From IMG/VR virus record IMGVR_UViG_2706794689_000012: a stretch of DNA of 6,234 bases; one strand, given 5' to 3'. Below are positions 1-6,234 of the stretch, one piece after another. The notes below the pieces were generated by a model, which was not told where the DNA came from, ran no database searches, and saw only the letters and a program-made list of their open reading frames with translations. A program made the translations under genes and the position numbers. How positions within the stretch are numbered: position 1 is the stretch's first letter; each line of letters opens with the position of its first letter. Origin of the DNA: a virus (Duplodnaviria > Heunggongvirae > Uroviricota > Caudoviricetes).

Positions 1-305
1 GGGTGATCGGCGTGTCATATTTCACTTCCGTACCCAGCACCGTCTCGGAGCCGGAGGATTCAAATCCCTCCGGCGGTGACTGCTCCTGCTCACCTGCCCG
101 GAACACCACCGTGACGCCGGAGATGTTGGTATTCCCCTCACTGTCCAGCACCGGCGTACTGTTCAGCAGCACGCTTTTTAATCCATCCACCGGACCTTCA
201 ACCGGCCCTTCGCTGATGGCATCGATCACACTCAGCAGCTGCGTGGACTTCAGGTTGTCCTTCGCTTCGCGCGGGGTATGCCCCTTACTGCTGCCTTTAC
301 CCATT
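1..305 (-). CDS. J: Tail tip fibre / host-specificity protein J, N-terminal 101 codons; gene continues past the window start
   Basis: Not in the ORF track because it runs off the window edge. Minus-strand ATG is the reverse complement of 303-305, with GGAG about 9 nt upstream. Translation reads MGKGSSKGHTPREAKDNLKSTQLLSVIDAISEGPVEGPVDGLKSVLLNSTPVLDSEGNTNISGVTVVFRAGEQEQSPPEGFESSGSETVLGTEVKYDTPIT with no stop to position 1. I recognise this as the lambda gpJ N-terminus from memory. Confidence 0.88.
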
Positions 306-364
306 CGTCATGCTCCATAAACGATAAAACCGCCCGGAGGCGATTTCACATAAAACATTTTGCA

Positions 365-1036
365 TCAGCGACCAATCACCACAACCTGACCACCGTCCCC
401 TTCGTCTGCCGTGCTGATCTCCTGAGATACCACACGTGACCCCACGCGCATTTCACCATACAGAACAGGCATAACATTGCCCTGGGCAACCATGTTATCC
501 AGTGAGGAGAAATAGGTGTTCTGCTTACCGTTATCCGTTGTCTGTGTGCGGGGAGTTCTGGCTTTCGGTGCCAGCATCTGAGCCACACCGCCGAGCACCA
601 TACTGGCACCGAGAGAAAACAGAATGCCGGTCATACCACCGGCACCAATGGCAGCCCCCCATGCTGCAAGGGTGGCTCCGGCGGTAAAGAATGATCCGGC
701 AATGGCGGCTGCTCCCAGGACAATCTGGAATACACCACCTGACTTGGCCCCGGCGACTCTGGGAACAATATGAATCACAGCGCCGTCAGGCAGAGCCTCA
801 TGTAACTGTGCCGTTAATCCGGACGTGCTAACATCCTGCCCGGCAATACGCACCTGATACCAGCCGTCGCTCAGCTTCTGACGAAACGCAGGGAGCTGTG
901 TGGCCATCGCCCGGATGGCTTCGGCACCCGTTTTCACACGAAGGTCGATGCGGCGGCCAAATCGTTGCAAATCCCCGTAAAGGCAGATGCGTGCCATGCC
1001 CGGTGACGCCAGAGGGAGTGTGTGCGTCGCTGCCAT
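365..1036 (-). CDS. I: Tail assembly protein I (223 aa): N-terminal ubiquitin-like beta-grasp region, Gly/Ala-rich hydrophobic C-terminal half
   Basis: Track ORF 365..1036 (-). Near-identical to lambda gpI as I recall it (MAATHTLPLASPGMARICLYGDLQRFGRRIDLRVKTGAEAIRA...). The C-terminal half carries glycine-zipper-like hydrophobic stretches (GAAAIAGSFFTAGATLAAWGAAIGAGGMTGILFSLGASMVLGG). The start lies 103 nt inside the 3' end of K in another frame. Confidence 0.92.
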   Translation of the reverse strand: MAATHTLPLASPGMARICLYGDLQRFGRRIDLRVKTGAEAIRAMATQLPAFRQKLSDGWYQVRIAGQDVSTSGLTAQLHEALPDGAVIHIVPRVAGAKSGGVFQIVLGAAAIAGSFFTAGATLAAWGAAIGAGGMTGILFSLGASMVLGGVAQMLAPKARTPRTQTTDNGKQNTYFSSLDNMVAQGNVMPVLYGEMRVGSRVVSQEISTADEGDGGQVVVIGR

Positions 1037-1596
1037 TTGTCGGTGTACCTCTCTCGTTTGCTCAGTTGTTCAGGAATATGGTGCAGCAGCTCGCCGTCAC
1101 CACAGTAAATGGCGGCATGATTCGGCACCGATGAACCAAAGCAGCACAGCAGCACATCGCCCGGCTGCGCCGCTGACAACGGCACCTGATACAGCCCTGT
1201 GGCCTCCAGATTATCCAGATAGAGATTCTGACCGTGACGCCACCAGTCATCCTCACGATGAAAATCCGGCATCTCAATCCCCGCCAGATGGTAAGCATCC
1301 CGGAACAGCGTGTAACAGTCCGTCACCCCGTGCTCAAAGCGCCGCCCGGTAAGATGTGGCACACAGCGGAACTTGTGAATCGCCCCCCGGCAGACCAGCC
1401 ACCACGGCAAATCACTCTGCACCTGCAGCTGCAGCCAGTCTTCCGGCGACATACGGAAATACGCCTCCGGCTCACCGGAGATATTCACGCAGGGGAAATA
1501 TCTTTCCCCCTCCGGCGTTCTTACCACGAAGCCGCACGACTCCGCTGGAGCACATCGCCGGGCGTGCGCCAGAATCGCTGATTCTGTCTCTGTCAT
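934..1596 (-). CDS. K: Tail tip assembly protein K homolog: NlpC/P60 C-terminal domain retained, MPN/JAB-type N-terminal region without a JAMM motif
   Basis: Track ORF 934..1596 (-), 220 aa. NlpC/P60 signature residues are present: Cys in GVTDCYTLFRDAY, His in VPNHAAIYCGDG, and the LLHHIP histidines. The N-terminal part has the conserved Glu (APAESCGFVV) but no H-x-H-x(n)-S-x-x-D motif anywhere. The first ATG (1594-1596) is 5 nt downstream of the L stop. An internal Met at 1450-1452 (MSPEDW...), which I believe is the classical lambda start, has GGAGG about 11 nt upstream. Confidence 0.85.
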   Translation of the reverse strand: MTETESAILAHARRCAPAESCGFVVRTPEGERYFPCVNISGEPEAYFRMSPEDWLQLQVQSDLPWWLVCRGAIHKFRCVPHLTGRRFEHGVTDCYTLFRDAYHLAGIEMPDFHREDDWWRHGQNLYLDNLEATGLYQVPLSAAQPGDVLLCCFGSSVPNHAAIYCGDGELLHHIPEQLSKRERYTDKWQRRTHSLWRHRAWHASAFTGICNDLAAASTFV

Positions 1597-1601
1597 GGGA
1601 T

Positions 1602-2300
1602 TTACTGCGAAAGTTTGTTAATGGAAAGGAAGCCGCCAAAGTTGCCGACGTTATGCGGAAACTTACAGCCACTCAGGCATTTGCTGCATTTATCCTTCGT
1701 GATGTCGGACGTTGGCTGGTCATATTCATCCGCGACCGCCGGACCGTGATAACCGCACTCATCGCCGCGATAGGTCCAGGTGCAGGTGTTGGCCAGCATG
1801 ATACGTCCCGGAAAAACAGCGCCATCTGTTTCCGTCGGCGTGGACAGTACAAAAGAGGCACTCACCGCGCTCAGTTCGCTGCACTGCTCAATGCGCCAGC
1901 GGCTGATCACCTCCTGCTCCGGATCGGCGTCACTGTTTCCGTTGACGAAGTTCACCGCATCCAGAAAACGGGCGTAAACCTTACGCCGGACCACCGTTCC
2001 GCCGACCAGACTCTGTAGATCTTCCGCCATCCCGGTGACCATACCGTACAGGTTAGAAACCGTCAGCGTGGGGCGCGTACTGGTGCCTTTGCCATTCAGT
2101 TCAAAACCACTCCCCTGAATGGGATACGGCTGATACTGTCGCCCCTGCCAGGTGACCGGCTCACCTTTTTCGTTCTGCTCATTACAGAAAAAATAACGTT
2201 CTCCACCGACCTCTGTCAGATCGATTTCCCAGAGCACCACGCTGGCCGACTGCTCCGCACGGGTGCATTCATTCAGTGTTTCCTGCCGGATATCCTGCAT
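1602..2300 (-). CDS. L: Minor tail (tail tip) protein L, 232 aa, lambda-type; Cys-rich C-terminus consistent with the Fe-S-binding gpL family
   Basis: Track ORF 1602..2300 (-). Near-identical to lambda gpL as I recall it (MQDIRQETLNECTRAEQSASVVLWEIDLTEVGGERYFFCNEQNEKGEPVTWQGRQYQPYPIQGSGFELNGKG...). Its ATG overlaps the stop of the upstream M fragment in a TGATG arrangement. Cysteines are in CTWTYRGDEC and DKCSKCLSGCK. Confidence 0.93.
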   Translation of the reverse strand: MQDIRQETLNECTRAEQSASVVLWEIDLTEVGGERYFFCNEQNEKGEPVTWQGRQYQPYPIQGSGFELNGKGTSTRPTLTVSNLYGMVTGMAEDLQSLVGGTVVRRKVYARFLDAVNFVNGNSDADPEQEVISRWRIEQCSELSAVSASFVLSTPTETDGAVFPGRIMLANTCTWTYRGDECGYHGPAVADEYDQPTSDITKDKCSKCLSGCKFPHNVGNFGGFLSINKLSQ

Positions 2301-2352
2301 CAGTTCACCACCTGTTCAAACTCTGCGCTGAACTCAACACGCAGCATACTGA
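2300..2352 (-). CDS. M: Minor tail protein M, lambda-type, last 17 codons only; the rest is in the masked block and probably 5'-truncated
   Basis: The reverse complement of 2300-2352 translates to SMLRVEFSAEFEQVVN followed by stop (TGA = reverse complement of 2300-2302). This matches the lambda gpM C-terminus as recalled. The stop shares one base with the L start codon. Confidence 0.6.
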
Positions 2353-2609
2353 NNNNNNNNNNNNNNNNNNNNNNNNNNNNNNNNNNNNNNNNNNNNNNNN
2401 NNNNNNNNNNNNNNNNNNNNNNNNNNNNNNNNNNNNNNNNNNNNNNNNNNNNNNNNNNNNNNNNNNNNNNNNNNNNNNNNNNNNNNNNNNNNNNNNNNNN
2501 NNNNNNNNNNNNNNNNNNNNNNNNNNNNNNNNNNNNNNNNNNNNNNNNNNNNNNNNNNNNNNNNNNNNNNNNNNNNNNNNNNNNNNNNNNNNNNNNNNNN
2601 NNNNNNNNN

Positions 2610-3249
2610 ACTTACAACCGCTCAGGCATTTGCTGCATTTATCCTTCGTGATATCGGACGTTGGCTGGTCATATTCATCCGCGACCGCCGGACCGCTATA
2701 ACCGCACTCATCACCGCGATAGGTCCAGGTGCAGGTATTAGCAAGCATGATGCGCCCCGGAAAAACAGCGCCGTCCGTTTCCGTCGGCGTGGACAGTACA
2801 AAGGAGGCACTGACCGCGCTCAGTTCGCTGCACTGCTCAATACGCCAGCGGCTGATCACCTCCTGCTCCGGATCGGCGTCACTGTTTCCGTTGACGAAGT
2901 TCACCGCATCCAGAAAACGGGCGTAAACCTTACGCCTGACCACCGTTCCGCCGACCAGACTCTGCAGGTCTTCCGCCATCCCGGTGACCATGCCGTGCAG
3001 ATTAGAGACTTTCAGCGTTGGCCTTGCACTGGCACCTTTGCCGTTCATCTCAAATCCACTCCCCTGAATGGGATAGGCCTGATACTGCCGACTCTGCCAG
3101 GTGACAGACTCTCCTTTCTCGTTCTGCTCATTGCAGAAAAAGTAGCGATCCCCGCCTACCTCGGTCAGGTCGATTTCCCAGAGCACCACGCTGGCCGACT
3201 GCTCCGCACGAATGCATTCATTCAGCGTTTCCTGTTGTATGTCCTGCAT
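2610..3249 (-). CDS. L: Second, diverged copy of minor tail protein L (L'); the 3' end, about 20 codons, lies in masked block 2353-2609
   Basis: The start of track ORF 2305..3249 (-) is real (ATG = reverse complement of 3247-3249). The 212 visible residues align without gaps to the L copy at 1602-2300 with 12 substitutions: R5Q, T13I, E34D, P48S, G53S, P58A, L67M, T72A, T74A, T79K, Y84H, H179S. The track's C-terminal residues after the X-run are an artefact of reading through Ns into the M fragment. Confidence 0.88.
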
Positions 3250-3376
3250 CAGATCACCACTTCGTCAAACTGACACGAAAAATCGGTATAGGTGATATGT
3301 TCTGTCGCTGACCACGTTCGACACACCACTCTGATTTTTCTGTTAATACCCGGCGGGCGCCAAAAAAAAGATTTAT
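3249..3376 (-). CDS. M: Divergent minor tail protein M homolog (M'), C-terminal 41 codons visible; the start lies in masked block 3377-3627
   Basis: The reverse complement of 3249-3376 translates to KSFFWRPPGINRKIRVVCRTWSATEHITYTDFSCQFDEVVI then stop. This aligns to the lambda gpM C-terminus (KSFLWTPPYEWRQIKVTCAKWSSRVSMLRVEFSAEFEQVVN as recalled) at roughly 45% identity. Its stop and the L' start overlap in TGATG, the same arrangement as M/L downstream. Confidence 0.68.
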
Positions 3377-3627
3377 NNNNNNNNNNNNNNNNNNNNNNNN
3401 NNNNNNNNNNNNNNNNNNNNNNNNNNNNNNNNNNNNNNNNNNNNNNNNNNNNNNNNNNNNNNNNNNNNNNNNNNNNNNNNNNNNNNNNNNNNNNNNNNNN
3501 NNNNNNNNNNNNNNNNNNNNNNNNNNNNNNNNNNNNNNNNNNNNNNNNNNNNNNNNNNNNNNNNNNNNNNNNNNNNNNNNNNNNNNNNNNNNNNNNNNNN
3601 NNNNNNNNNNNNNNNNNNNNNNNNNNN

Positions 3628-5908
3628 CCGCTGATCAACCATCCCCATAAGTGCTTTTATTGCCTGAGGGCCAATCTCTCCATTCTGGCCGTCATTTTGA
3701 ATAGTGATTTGGTATACAGGGGCATAGGTAATATCTCCGCCTCCATTACCACTTTTACTATTAATAGCTCTGACACCAAGAGAACCATCGGAAGTTCGTG
3801 TTAATGGCATAATGGCTTCCGGTCCAGCCTCACCAAAAACACCAGCCCCTTTTGCAAAAGCAAAAAATTGCGGGGAATCATAAATACCGTTCGAATACGT
3901 GCTCAATGACGGAGACTCATAAACACCGCCCTTTGCATTCGGAATAAATTTACTAATAGCACTCCCGATAGTTCCTAAAATCCCCCCAGAAGAACTGTTA
4001 CTAATGCTGTCGAAAATCCCAGTAATTGAAGCCTTTAATGCTATTCGACTAAGATCCGAAATCACGGAAGTAGCGAAAGAACGAAAATTTGCCTTGCCTG
4101 TCGTGACAAAATCACCCAGCGCATCGGTCATCCCATCAAACATCTGAGTCGTGGTTGATTTTATCTGCTCACTGATATCCTTAGTGTCATCCAGCCAGTT
4201 ATTGAATCCCTGGGAGGCACCACTAACCCAGTCTCCTGCCTGAATATCGAGCTGCTCGTTTTTCTGTCTGACAATTTCTTTTTCCCGTTCCAGAGCATCA
4301 TTCAGAGCCTGCATTTTCTCTTGAAAAACATGATCTGACATTCCACGGGATTTATCTGCATAGTCACGTTCAAGTTGCAGACGCTGATTGTTATATCCAT
4401 GTTCAATCCGCAGTAATTCCTGCTGGCGTTGCTGATTTTTATCGCCAACCCCATAACCAGCAATCTGAATATCATACCCCTGCTGACGATTATCAATCGA
4501 AGCCTGCAATGAATCACGCCATGCTGTTATTTCGGCGGATTCCTTGATTAGCCTGTTATTTTTTTCAATCGCAACATTTTTCTCCATCAACGTGGTTATT
4601 TCTTCCCGGTGTAAGAGAAGCGATTTCTGATCCTGGGTTAATTTCGATGATGGTCGTGACTCTAGGTCGGCAATCCGCTGACGCCACTTAACCAGTTCCT
4701 GTTCAGAGGAACTTAATTTAACGGTCAACTCAGCTTGTGAACTTAGTAACGCATTCTGTTGATTCAGATGATCAATCATTCGTTGGGCTGCATCATCAGA
4801 ATAACCTTTCGCCTTTGGTTGCTTTGGATCTTTATAACGCTCATTTATTTGAGCGATAAGATTATTATATTCTTCCTTTGAATACTGATTCTTTAGCTTT
4901 TCCAGTTTTGCAAGTTCACTAGCTCTCTGCTGCTCCCGGGTCTGATATTGTTTTNNNNNNNNNNNNNNNNNNNNNNNNNNNNNNNNNNNNNNNNNNNNNN
5001 NNNNNNNNNNNNNNNNNNNNNNNNNNNNNNNNNNNNNNNNNNNNNNNNNNNNNNNNNNNNNNNNNNNNNNNNNNNNNNNNNNNNNNNNNNNNNNNNNNNN
5101 NNNNNNNNNNNNNNNNNNNNNNNNNNNNNNNNNNNNNNNNNNNNNNNNNNNNNNNNNNNNNNNNNNNNNNNNNNNNNNNNNNNNNNNNNNNNNNNNNNNN
5201 NNNNNNNNTTTTGATCAAGGGAGGCCTCACGGCCAATATCCAGCATGGAATCCCATGCCCATTTTGCGGAGTCTGCGACAGCTTTCCATGCAGTCTCAAG
5301 ATAACCAAGATTTTCTTTAATCTGGTTGGTGCGCTGGATCATTGAGGATGAGTATTCTTCTGTCGCAATGCGGGCGGCCTCCTGCTGGTTCCCTTCATCC
5401 TGTAGCGCCTTAATCTGGTTATAAGTCGCAAGTGTCAGAAAATGGTACTGATCATTAAGTTTTGATATGGCACTGACAGGATCCTTTGCAATTTCATTGA
5501 AGTCATTAACCAGTTGTTCGGTTGATATTCCTGTTACTTCGCTCGTTTTTACTATCGCTGTCGTCACTTGCTCCAGCGAACTGCTCGCTACCTTTCCCGA
5601 ACGCACAANNNNNNNNNNNNNNNNNNNNNNNNNNNNNNNNNNNNNNNNNNNNNNNNNNNNNNNNNNNNNNNNNNNNNNNNNNNNNNNNNNNNNNNNNNNN
5701 NNNNNNNNNNNNNNNNNNNNNNNNNNNNNNNNNNNNNNNNNNNNNNNNNNNNNNNNNNNNNNNNNNNNNNNNNNNNNNNNNNNNNNNNNNNNNNNNNNNN
5801 NNNNNNNNNNNNNNNNNNNNNNNNNNNNNNNNNNNNNNNNNNNNNNNNNNNNNNNNNNNNNNNNNNNNNNNNNNNNTAACACCATAAATGGCGACTGACC
5901 AGTGGACA
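3628..5908 (-). CDS. H: Tail length tape-measure protein (H-like), divergent from lambda gpH; interrupted by masked blocks, with start and stop both masked
   Basis: Three visible segments are homologous to lambda gpH in colinear order. 5877-5908 gives STGQSPFMVL (lambda AGGQSPWLIL, near the N-terminus). 5209-5608 gives ...QIKENLGYLETAWKAVADSAKWAWDSMLDIGREASLDQ (lambda LKENMGTLETWADRTARAFKSMWDAVLDIGRP). 3628-4954 is a coiled-coil-rich central and C-terminal region ending ...GQNGEIGPQAIKALMGMVDQR (lambda ...GTNGQIGPAALKAVYDMARKG). Base composition is visibly AT-richer than the L-K-I-J block. The reading frame of 3628-4954 differs from that of 5209-5908. Confidence 0.82.
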
Positions 5909-6161
5909 NNNNNNNNNNNNNNNNNNNNNNNNNNNNNNNNNNNNNNNNNNNNNNNNNNNNNNNNNNNNNNNNNNNNNNNNNNNNNNNNNNNNNNNNNNNN
6001 NNNNNNNNNNNNNNNNNNNNNNNNNNNNNNNNNNNNNNNNNNNNNNNNNNNNNNNNNNNNNNNNNNNNNNNNNNNNNNNNNNNNNNNNNNNNNNNNNNNN
6101 NNNNNNNNNNNNNNNNNNNNNNNNNNNNNNNNNNNNNNNNNNNNNNNNNNNNNNNNNNNNN

Positions 6162-6234
6162 GAGCAATCAGACGTTGCAAAGCAACAACCTGTTCATCAT
6201 GCGCTTTTGCTGCTTCTCGCTCTGCCTGAGCCTC
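6162..6234 (-). CDS. Partial open frame upstream of the H-like gene: either the C-terminus of the preceding tail-assembly gene (G/GT position in lambda) or an N-terminal extension of H
   Basis: The reverse complement of 6162-6234 reads EAQAEREAAKAHDEQVVALQRLIA with no stop, in a different frame from the H-like segment at 5877-5908. By spacing relative to lambda gpH the H start should fall near here or just inside masked block 5909-6161. Only 24 codons are visible and I do not recognise them. Confidence 0.25.

Follow-up and report, generated by a model that had tools for sequence, protein, structure and literature searches.

The second M-L tail-tip module that appears to stand in tandem with the first in a draft contig labelled Shigella sonnei is probably a product of scaffolding, by which paralogous prophage fragments were put in series, and the tandem L duplication as a feature is most likely not real. 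The window, i.e., the whole stretch of DNA analyzed here, is this 6,234-bp contig in full (CWUI01000206.1; GCA_001249935.1), and its coding pieces lie throughout on the minus strand, both L copies included. The N runs that separate these pieces are inexact in length, the two copies come from two distinct lineages, the gene order is canonical elsewhere, and like false tandems stand at the joins of other drafts. From these observations we infer both the falsity of the join between the upstream copy (L′) and the M tail of the downstream one (M_A), and the exact scaffolding error that would have produced it.

Five N runs of 251-268 nt each, oddly uniform in size, make up 20.6% of the window. The one at 2353-2609 (257 N), which we take for a scaffold gap of estimated size, is the sole link between the downstream L (L_A) and L′, and the copy of the public record in the assembly index has the same N run. 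The other four could be compared with references whose flanks are 98-100% identical and which are concordant with each other (L005, L003, L199, L178, L185, L097 and L215). Where the references carry 257 nt, comprising the 5′ part of M′ and the 3′ end of the tape-measure gene, the window has 251 N (3377-3627, between pieces B and C). Between pieces C and D it has 254 N in place of 240 nt, and between D and F it has 553 positions (N runs of 268 and 253 around a small piece) in place of 570 (295 and 243 in the references). The size errors of these four runs amount to -6, +14, -27 and +10 nt, and the tape-measure reading frame is broken if the N lengths are taken as written. Furthermore, the submitter's list of coding sequences comprises I, K and L as well as a 92-aa antisense ORF, leaves out L′, M′ and H, and contains no coding sequence that crosses any N run; it is the expected output of a gene caller barred from crossing such runs. 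The antisense ORF is the submitter's own annotation on this record, which upholds the argument that L′ could not be called, although nested antisense calls elsewhere in the index had weakened it. Since the N lengths deviate from near-identical references and no coding sequence was annotated for L′, M′ or the tape measure, no sequence joins the two copies; very probably, the N blocks mark true gaps of the scaffold and not hidden sequence.

The sequence-only reading had described 2353-2609 as masked, and this block is most likely an N run of the public record with an estimated length. As a consequence, the spacing of about 950 bp between the copies, the position of the L′ stop (predicted at 2551-2553) and the 255 nt said to be left for M all depend on that estimate, and none of them could be confirmed. 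Its coordinates for the genes themselves hold, as described below for each copy.

Copy A lies in piece A, at 1-2352. Its L gene (L_A, 1602-2300) is complete and encodes a lambda-type minor tail protein of 232 aa, which matches PF05100 over profile positions 1-206 with 330 bits (E=4.6e-99) and belongs to this family by its curated cutoff. Upstream of it, at 2300-2352, the 3′ end of a lambda-type M can be read from the letters, with 2 nt of codon 93, codons 94-109 and the stop. These 16 residues, SMLRVEFSAEFEQVVN, followed by a TGA (2300-2302) that overlaps the ATG of L by 1 nt, are too short for a profile score and are identical to the tail of lambda-type M and to the M of two related loci (L004 and L006). 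L_A equals the L of L006 except for 3 nt at 1655-1657 and one SNP. It carries an oddity (+1 C and -1 A, resulting in R215P/N216H) that had no match among 8,185 L copies in complete genomes; this oddity coincides exactly with the TTT/TTC site by which A-type and B-type alleles can be told apart, and piece B breaks off 4 nt away. The exact L_A protein was found on no other contig of the gene index.

The order and features of the lambda tail-tip block H-M-L-K-I-J, in which gpM is the distal tail protein and gpL the hub protein, are preserved, including the stop/start overlap of M and L (TGATG) and the Pfam families. The K tail gene (934-1596, 220 aa), aligned to the 247-aa K of L006, has an in-frame 81-bp deletion and, in contrast to the lambda block, lacks 27 aa that include the JAMM motif HSHPGGLPWLSEAD, its Prok-JAB match being shortened to profile positions 4-59; the exact K protein was likewise on no other contig of the gene index. 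The tail assembly gene I is a 223-aa ORF at 365-1036 (PF06805, E=3.4e-27), annotated by the submitter as 190 aa at 365-937, and the exact 190-aa protein is widespread, its context being the canonical H-M-L-K-I-J in every case. Finally, the 5′ end of J, the tail-tip/host-specificity gene, occupies 2-304 with its first 101 codons (MGKGSSKGHTPRE...) and runs off the contig end. This short N-terminal piece gave no match in a Pfam search, and it aligns to the annotated gpJ starts in L004 and L006.

Copy B consists of L′ and the tail of M′. L′ (2610-3249, codons 1-213) is an L of a Rac-like lineage that matches PF05100 over profile positions 1-186 with 305 bits (E=1.8e-91), being cut by the N run, so that its visible end lies one residue past Cys212. 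It is 99.6% identical to the L of three related loci (L003, L005 and L225), and from that of L005 it differs at 2686, 2696 and 2697 only. This 3-nt patch (2686-2697) is more likely the result of natural gene conversion than of an artefactual swap with L_A, because the latter would require two path switches within 15 nt, and the swap was therefore dropped. A unique erroneous base at 2617, near the end of piece B, was also considered and rejected, as L005 carries the same base. The 3′ end of M′ (3249-3376, 41 codons and the stop) belongs to a distal tail protein of the same Rac-like lineage (PF05939, E=3e-6). This 41-aa piece, being a fragment, scores 27.9 bits and stays below the 39-bit cutoff of the family; in L005 the full-length homologue has 112 aa, scores 109.8 bits against PF05939 and is 41% identical to lambda-type M.

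Farther upstream, four pieces of a tape-measure gene of the 1077-aa type (3628-4954, 5209-5608, 5877-5908 and 6162-6234; Pfam TMP_2, TMP_4 and Tape_meas_lam_C) have N runs of 254, 268 and 253 between them, for which the references have 240, 295 and 243 nt. Their 1,832 visible nt are 100% identical, with zero mismatches, to L005, L199 and L178. Pieces B-F are altogether collinear with one Rac-like prophage, at 99.6-100% identity. In the Rac-like prophage of E. coli E7 and EC2, to which 2610-6234 is identical to the same degree, H (1077 aa), M′ (112 aa) and L stand in this order beside ydaY. The assignment of copy B to Rac rests on this ydaY neighbour and on annotation, without a direct alignment to K-12 ynaA.

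The two L copies are clearly distinct. They differ in 12 of 213 residues, in 40 synonymous codons and in 61 of 639 nt, and the differences are spread over the gene, in agreement with the 12 residue changes and the gene-wide synonymous changes reported before. They are too different for a recent duplication or for a collapse of identical repeats, both of which had been discounted from the letters, and both copies retain Cys173, 182, 205 and 212, the residues that coordinate the [4Fe-4S] cluster of lambda gpL (PMC10721106). Their homologous offset is 949 nt with the N run as written, and their mutual nucleotide identity is 90.5%. Each has a much closer relative elsewhere, namely a lambda-like prophage (L006) at about 99.8% identity for copy A and the Rac-like prophage L005 at 99.6% for copy B, which bears out the earlier suggestion of different prophage lineages. 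Alignment of piece A to the lambda-like prophage in CP104423.1 leaves 3 mismatches over 1,432 nt and 4 real differences over 941 nt, versus only 89-91% identity to the Rac-like prophage. The copies are thus not mutual closest relatives, as those of a tandem duplication would be (90.5% vs 99.6% and about 99.8%). No continuous sequence connects them, the 257-N run alone doing so, and the blocks are separated by assembly gaps as in a false duplication, with N runs on both sides of piece B.

We therefore favor a scaffolding artefact, which would have arisen as follows. The window would be a short-read scaffold made up of small contigs, which come from two or more lambdoid prophages residing together in one Shigella sonnei isolate. 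Positions 2610-6234 would derive from the Rac-like prophage, with its tape measure of 1077 aa followed by M′ and L′, and positions 1-2352 from a canonical lambda-like prophage, with H (853 aa), M (109), L (232) and then K-I-J. Both contigs would end where the sequence turns repetitive within the genome, and the scaffolder would have set the two paralogous fragments in series over the 257-N gap, giving the appearance of a second M-L module. M and L would then be single in each prophage, and no single operon would yield two gpL variants. The earlier claim of a tandem M-L on one molecule that expresses two such variants finds no support, as it depends wholly on the 257-N join in a 6.2-kb draft scaffold; a chimeric contig was also among the options listed with it, and this part of the proposal matches the reading favored here, while the headline of a tandem module rests on that join.

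The anomalies of L_A and K, unmatched elsewhere and one of them right next to the point where copy B breaks off, also count for an artefact. Two points speak against it. A positive gap of 257 N normally requires several bridging read pairs, and, given that the other four gaps connect their pieces in the right order and miss the reference sizes by only 6-27 nt, the scaffolder did use real pairs. Moreover, no specific error could be reconstructed that would link the 3′ region of L′ to the M_A tail.

Base rates in related loci favor the scaffolding artefact. Both lineages have a single M and a single L wherever seen. The same holds for lambda and for every related locus of continuous sequence, unlike the window with its extra partial M′-L′ upstream over an N gap. 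In every related genome seen, the L′ of the Rac-like prophage is followed by K-I-J; in E7, EC2 and the IMG/VR loci it leads directly into them, again unlike the window. Two L copies were present in 2 of 223 related loci (L125 and L178), and in both the second copy starts at a single-N scaffold join. The terminal 98 nt of the left contig of L125 recur without change inside the right contig. The end of piece B is unlike this, having no long run identical to piece A and differing from it 7 and 10 nt from the end.

A documented type of assembly error is the false duplication whose copies stand on either side of a gap (PMC9516828), and the window resembles such cases in having two diverged copies of the same orientation, a gap between them and gaps flanking the extra copy; L125 and L178 follow the same pattern at their single-N joins. 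Those documented are mostly heterozygous haplotypes in vertebrate assemblies (PMC9516828), whereas here the “alleles” would be paralogous prophages in a haploid bacterium, and the gap is an estimate of 257 N instead of a minimal N.

Complete genomes point in the same direction. The best 30 complete-genome matches have one M-L each, one of them with an IS110 insertion, and in the best E. coli records both query copies fall on one L among the matches listed. Such modules occur at a median of 2-3 places per E. coli genome and at up to 14. In the complete-genome collection of 5,426 E. coli genomes, which does not include Shigella, nothing exceeded 99.6% identity for copy B or about 98.8% for the L_A/M_A part. 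The junction was also sought by its spacing: that of the shortened motifs in the window is 377 nt, and the corrected gapped pattern, which does match the window, had no other instance in metagenome or viral contigs, while a shorter control pattern matched at least 120 viral contigs. Gapped scans of genome_contigs covered gaps of 345-375 and 425-455 nt, i.e., the neighbouring and “full M” spacings only.

A real junction is a possible, if rather doubtful, alternative. It would join a Rac-like H-M′-L′ remnant, through illegitimate (non-homologous) or IS-mediated recombination, to a 5′-truncated M followed by L-K-I-J from another lambda-like prophage. In that case the gap would contain the last 59 nt of L′ and, starting near codon 27, about 198 nt of M, sequences that would be repeated elsewhere in the genome and hence unassembled, and the locus would be a decaying composite with no working tail-tip operon. 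The positive gap, of the same order as the four correctly ordered joins, suggests bridging read pairs. Decay is apparent in both lineages: K has lost its JAMM motif here, IS1 interrupts the Rac-like tape measure in EC2 and the tail tube is frameshifted in E7, and the Rac of K-12, reduced to ydaY-ynaA-lomR with ydaY and a tape-measure remnant kept, is without M-L-K-I-J altogether. S. sonnei genomes are, in addition, IS-rich and strongly rearranged. Nevertheless, no sequence covers the junction, no further instance of it occurs in viral or metagenome contigs or in the closest complete genomes, and both tandem-L cases among the 223 loci are at scaffold joins. Furthermore, a passage from the L/K region into the middle of M would be non-homologous, with no homology to drive it.

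It is very unlikely that the N blocks are deliberate base-for-base masks laid on a contiguous assembly, with the contig running through a true junction. The uniformity of the runs (251-268 nt, 20.6% of the window) and the term “masked” used for them before would fit this idea, but it would imply indels of -6, +14, -27 and +10 nt located exactly beneath the masks, despite zero mismatches in 1,832 visible nt. The public coding-sequence coordinates also fit the window as given, and an antisense ORF is annotated where L′ lies.

Even less probable are two complete adjacent segments, a full-length L′ followed by a complete M and L, in which the true gap would be about 335 nt and the N run too short. 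Gap sizes are indeed estimated and demonstrably inexact. Nonetheless, the 59 nt of the L′ end and the 277 nt of M codons 1-93 add up to about 336 nt, so that the 257 N would be short by about 78 nt, compared with errors of -27 to +14 nt at the other four gaps. The scan of genome_contigs with gaps of 425-455 nt, which includes the “full M” spacing, gave no match, and the non-homologous junction would still be unexplained.

A tandem duplication of M-L inside one prophage, followed by divergence, would accord with the same orientation and the homologous offset of the copies, but it is practically untenable, being refuted by copies that are 99.6-99.8% identical to different widespread lineages and 90.5% to each other, with M tails at about 41% (protein): being nearer to separate lineages than to one another, the copies diverged before any juxtaposition.

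A real join would offer a small but concrete case of non-homologous recombination between co-resident prophages. One transcription unit would then contain two gpL genes that look intact and belong to different lineages, which would be modestly interesting for tail-tip assembly and phage mosaicism. If, as seems probable, the join is a scaffolding artefact, the window calls for caution in two respects. An N run in a draft scaffold stands for something unknown whose length is uncertain, and not for masked sequence, and paralogous prophage modules placed serially over gaps mimic gene duplication, as in the two further examples among IMG/VR contigs.

The remaining coding sequence of the submitter, an antisense 92-aa ORF on the plus strand (2995-3273; CSG23915.1, “Uncharacterised protein”), lies inside L′. 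It forms a one-member cluster without a Pfam family and is almost certainly spurious. Nested antisense calls are present in other records of the index as well.

The genes of the window, all on the minus strand, are ordinary lambda-type tail-tip genes, whether the junction between them is real or not. A tape-measure gene in four pieces (6234-3628; Pfam TMP_2, TMP_4 and Tape_meas_lam_C) is followed by the final 41 codons of a divergent M, here M' (3376-3249), and by codons 1-213 of an L gene, L' (3249-2610; PF05100, E=1.8e-91). After a run of 257 N (2609-2353), a lambda-type M is represented by its final 16 codons (SMLRVEFSAEFEQVVN), ending at the start of a second L, where its TGA shares one base with the following ATG. 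This second copy, L_A, is complete (2300-1602, 232 aa; PF05100, E=4.6e-99), and is followed by K (1596-934), by I (1036-365) and by J, present up to codon 101 (304-2). A sequence-only reading had taken 2300-3376 for a tandem, diverged second M-L module. The sequences are present as text, but with only an N gap between them they do not establish a tandem arrangement on one molecule. We consider it most likely, and probable, that the window is a scaffolding artefact, in which fragments of two ordinary prophages would have been lined up in series.

By sequence comparison, L' and everything to its right belong to one widespread prophage type, whose tape measure has 1077 aa and whose M', of 112 aa, is followed by L', and which adjoins ydaY in Escherichia coli E7 and EC2. 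The K-12 Rac cryptic prophage has kept ydaY and a tape-measure remnant (ynaA), and so we call this lineage Rac-like, a name given without direct alignment to ynaA. Of the 5,426 complete E. coli genomes, 1,088 carry this tape measure, mostly once in each. Decay differs by strain: in EC2 an IS1 sits in the tape measure (6727-7493 of its locus), in E7 the tail tube is frameshifted (8664-9625), and in K-12 Rac the entire M-L-K-I-J block is gone, leaving ydaY-ynaA-lomR. In turn, L_A and everything to its left belong to a canonical lambda-like prophage, in which H, M, L and K measure 853, 109, 232 and 247 aa and I and J follow. This piece (1-2352) shows 3 mismatches over 1,432 nt against a lambda-like prophage in CP104423.1, and, setting aside an 81-bp deletion, a single SNP and a 3-nt change as the only real differences over the other 941 nt; its identity to the Rac-like K-I-J of E7 is only 89-91%.

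One M and one L were found in every related locus with continuous sequence, this comparison including the best 30 complete-genome matches to the whole region, the loci encoding the exact I protein and all Rac-like loci. E. coli genomes contain such modules at a median of 2-3 places, with a maximum of 14, co-resident paralogues thus being the rule. Among 223 assembled L-gene loci, chiefly IMG/VR prophage contigs of draft isolate genomes, none had two L copies in uninterrupted sequence. Two did present a second copy, starting both times at a single-N scaffold join. The first (IMGVR_UViG_2698536312_000003, join at 5497) reads H-M-L-K(5' part), N, H(3' end)-M-L-K-I-J, and the final 98 nt of its left contig recur unchanged inside the right one, marking an assembly-graph fork written in series. 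In the second, a Rac-like locus (L178, IMGVR_UViG_2700989365_000006, joins at 8833 and 9992), 844 nt of L-K are repeated across the N at 98.2% identity, and a further repeat, of K-I, follows at the next N. False duplication, with an assembly gap between the copies, has been described as a type of assembly error (PMC9516828), and contigs of this kind, with their false-looking M-L-K, L-K and K-I repeats, would lead viral catalogues to count too many genes. Furthermore, a gapped pattern specific to the arrangement of the window, which did match the window itself, had no match in metagenome or viral contigs; a control L pattern matched at least 120 viral contigs.

Piece 1-2352 carries anomalies of its own. 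At codons 215-216, just past the last Fe-S cysteine, L_A reads CKFPHNVG vs CKFRNNVG in all relatives, the result of a +1 C and a -1 A at a distance of four bases that together restore the frame (1653-1659), a change present in 0 of 8,185 L copies from complete E. coli genomes. It begins exactly at the TTT/TTC site separating the common lambda-like from the Rac-like alleles, 4 nt from the site that by homology corresponds to the last base of L' before the N run. This suggests that reads of more than one L copy meet there in the assembly, which fits a collapsed shared segment downstream and would also fit a real tandem, in which the two 3' ends of L form a short repeat. The 220-aa K has an in-frame 81-bp deletion at 1416-1430, between GGCTGCAGG direct repeats, that removes 27 aa (AEMQGEIVALVHSHPGGLPWLSEADRR) including the JAMM metalloprotease motif (HSHPGGLPWLSEAD) and correspondingly shortens the Prok-JAB match; an assembly error or else an inactivating deletion specific to the strain would account for it. 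No other contig of the gene index encodes these exact L_A and K proteins.

A real composite, two prophage remnants truly fused, is possible but less likely than the artefact. Segment 2610-3376 is 99.6% identical to the E7 prophage, and 3628-4954, 5209-5608, 5877-5908 and 6162-6234 are each 100% identical to it, all collinear. The intervening N runs measure 251 nt (3377-3627), 254 (4955-5208), 268 (5609-5876) and 253 (5909-6161), vs 257, 240, 295 and 243 nt in E7. These four joins are in correct order, with sizes 6-27 nt off, indicating that the scaffolder worked from real read pairs. A positive gap of 257 N from L' to the M tail would normally need bridging pairs too; we could derive no specific error that makes such pairs from two separate prophages, and the end of L' shares no long identical run with piece 1-2352. 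Both lineages are, moreover, visibly decaying (the EC2 and E7 lesions, the damaged K here). Shigella sonnei is known for IS-driven rearrangement. On these grounds together, a true fusion of remnants could have occurred.

Lengths, annotation and coordinates all point to the N runs being gaps that would hide no sequence. The reference spacings of 257, 240 and 570 nt (the last from 5209-5608 to 6162-6234) recur in the related loci L003, L199, L178, L185, L097 and L215, and the N-run lengths as written would break the tape-measure frame, a gene with 0 mismatches over its visible 1,832 nt. The N runs interrupt this usually single-copy gene every few hundred bases. Exact-protein look-ups matched a single record, CWUI01000206.1 (GCA_001249935.1), whose entire 6,234-bp contig is the window; the submitter proteins are labelled Shigella sonnei (CSG23901.1, K; CSG23907.1, L; CSG23915.1, "Uncharacterised protein"). 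The five N runs are equally present in the copy of the record examined, and the public CDS coordinates match the window unchanged, including that of an ORF past the first N run. The submitter CDS list holds I, K, L and this ORF (CSG23915.1, 92 aa, plus strand, 2995-3273), antisense inside L', and lacks L', M' and the tape-measure gene. These absences are expected if the gene caller met N runs that it could not cross, and the missing L' would be unexpected had its 640-nt open frame run on into sequence. CSG23915.1, the sole member of its cluster and without a Pfam family, is almost certainly a spurious prediction that arose because an N run cuts off L'. Deliberate masking, for which the oddly uniform runs could speak (five of 251-268 nt, together 20.6% of the window), is very improbable, since base-for-base N would conceal four indels, most not multiples of three, exactly beneath the runs.

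If the runs are gaps, no base sequence joins the L copies, and the 949-nt offset as written between their homologous positions rests on an estimate. So do the L' stop placed near 2555 and the 5' truncation of M for lack of space, both argued from the sequence alone. Read literally, the gap of 257 nt would accommodate the final 59 nt of L' and 198 nt of M, starting at about codon 27; a complete M would require about 336 nt, a gap error of -78 nt against -27 to +14 nt in the other four.

Duplication followed by divergence is excluded, as the copies belong to different prophage lineages, a possibility that the same reading had proposed to check. Its counts also hold: L_A and L' differ at 12 of 213 residues and in 40 further synonymous codons (61 of 639 nt), distributed over the gene. 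The full-length M' of the Rac-like lineage shares 41% identity with the lambda-type M. In the tail tip, gpL is a trimer whose [4Fe-4S] cluster is held by Cys173, 182, 205 and 212 (PMC10721106). These are kept in both L_A and L', so that neither copy is obviously dead, though the K beside L_A is damaged; a functional two-gpL system is unsupported. The G+C content is 43-47% in the tape measure and M' tail (3250-6234), rising to 52% in the 73-nt end piece, vs 55-59% in L', L_A, K, I and J (1-3249), which suggests that the Rac-like lineage is a mosaic too, its boundary lying close to where M' meets L'. Within the otherwise Rac-like L', a 3-nt patch at 2686-2697 (H185S, "GYSGP") is the allele of other L lineages, the commonest lambda-type L among them, and resembles a short tract of gene conversion between co-resident prophages, unless the genome has a third copy of L.
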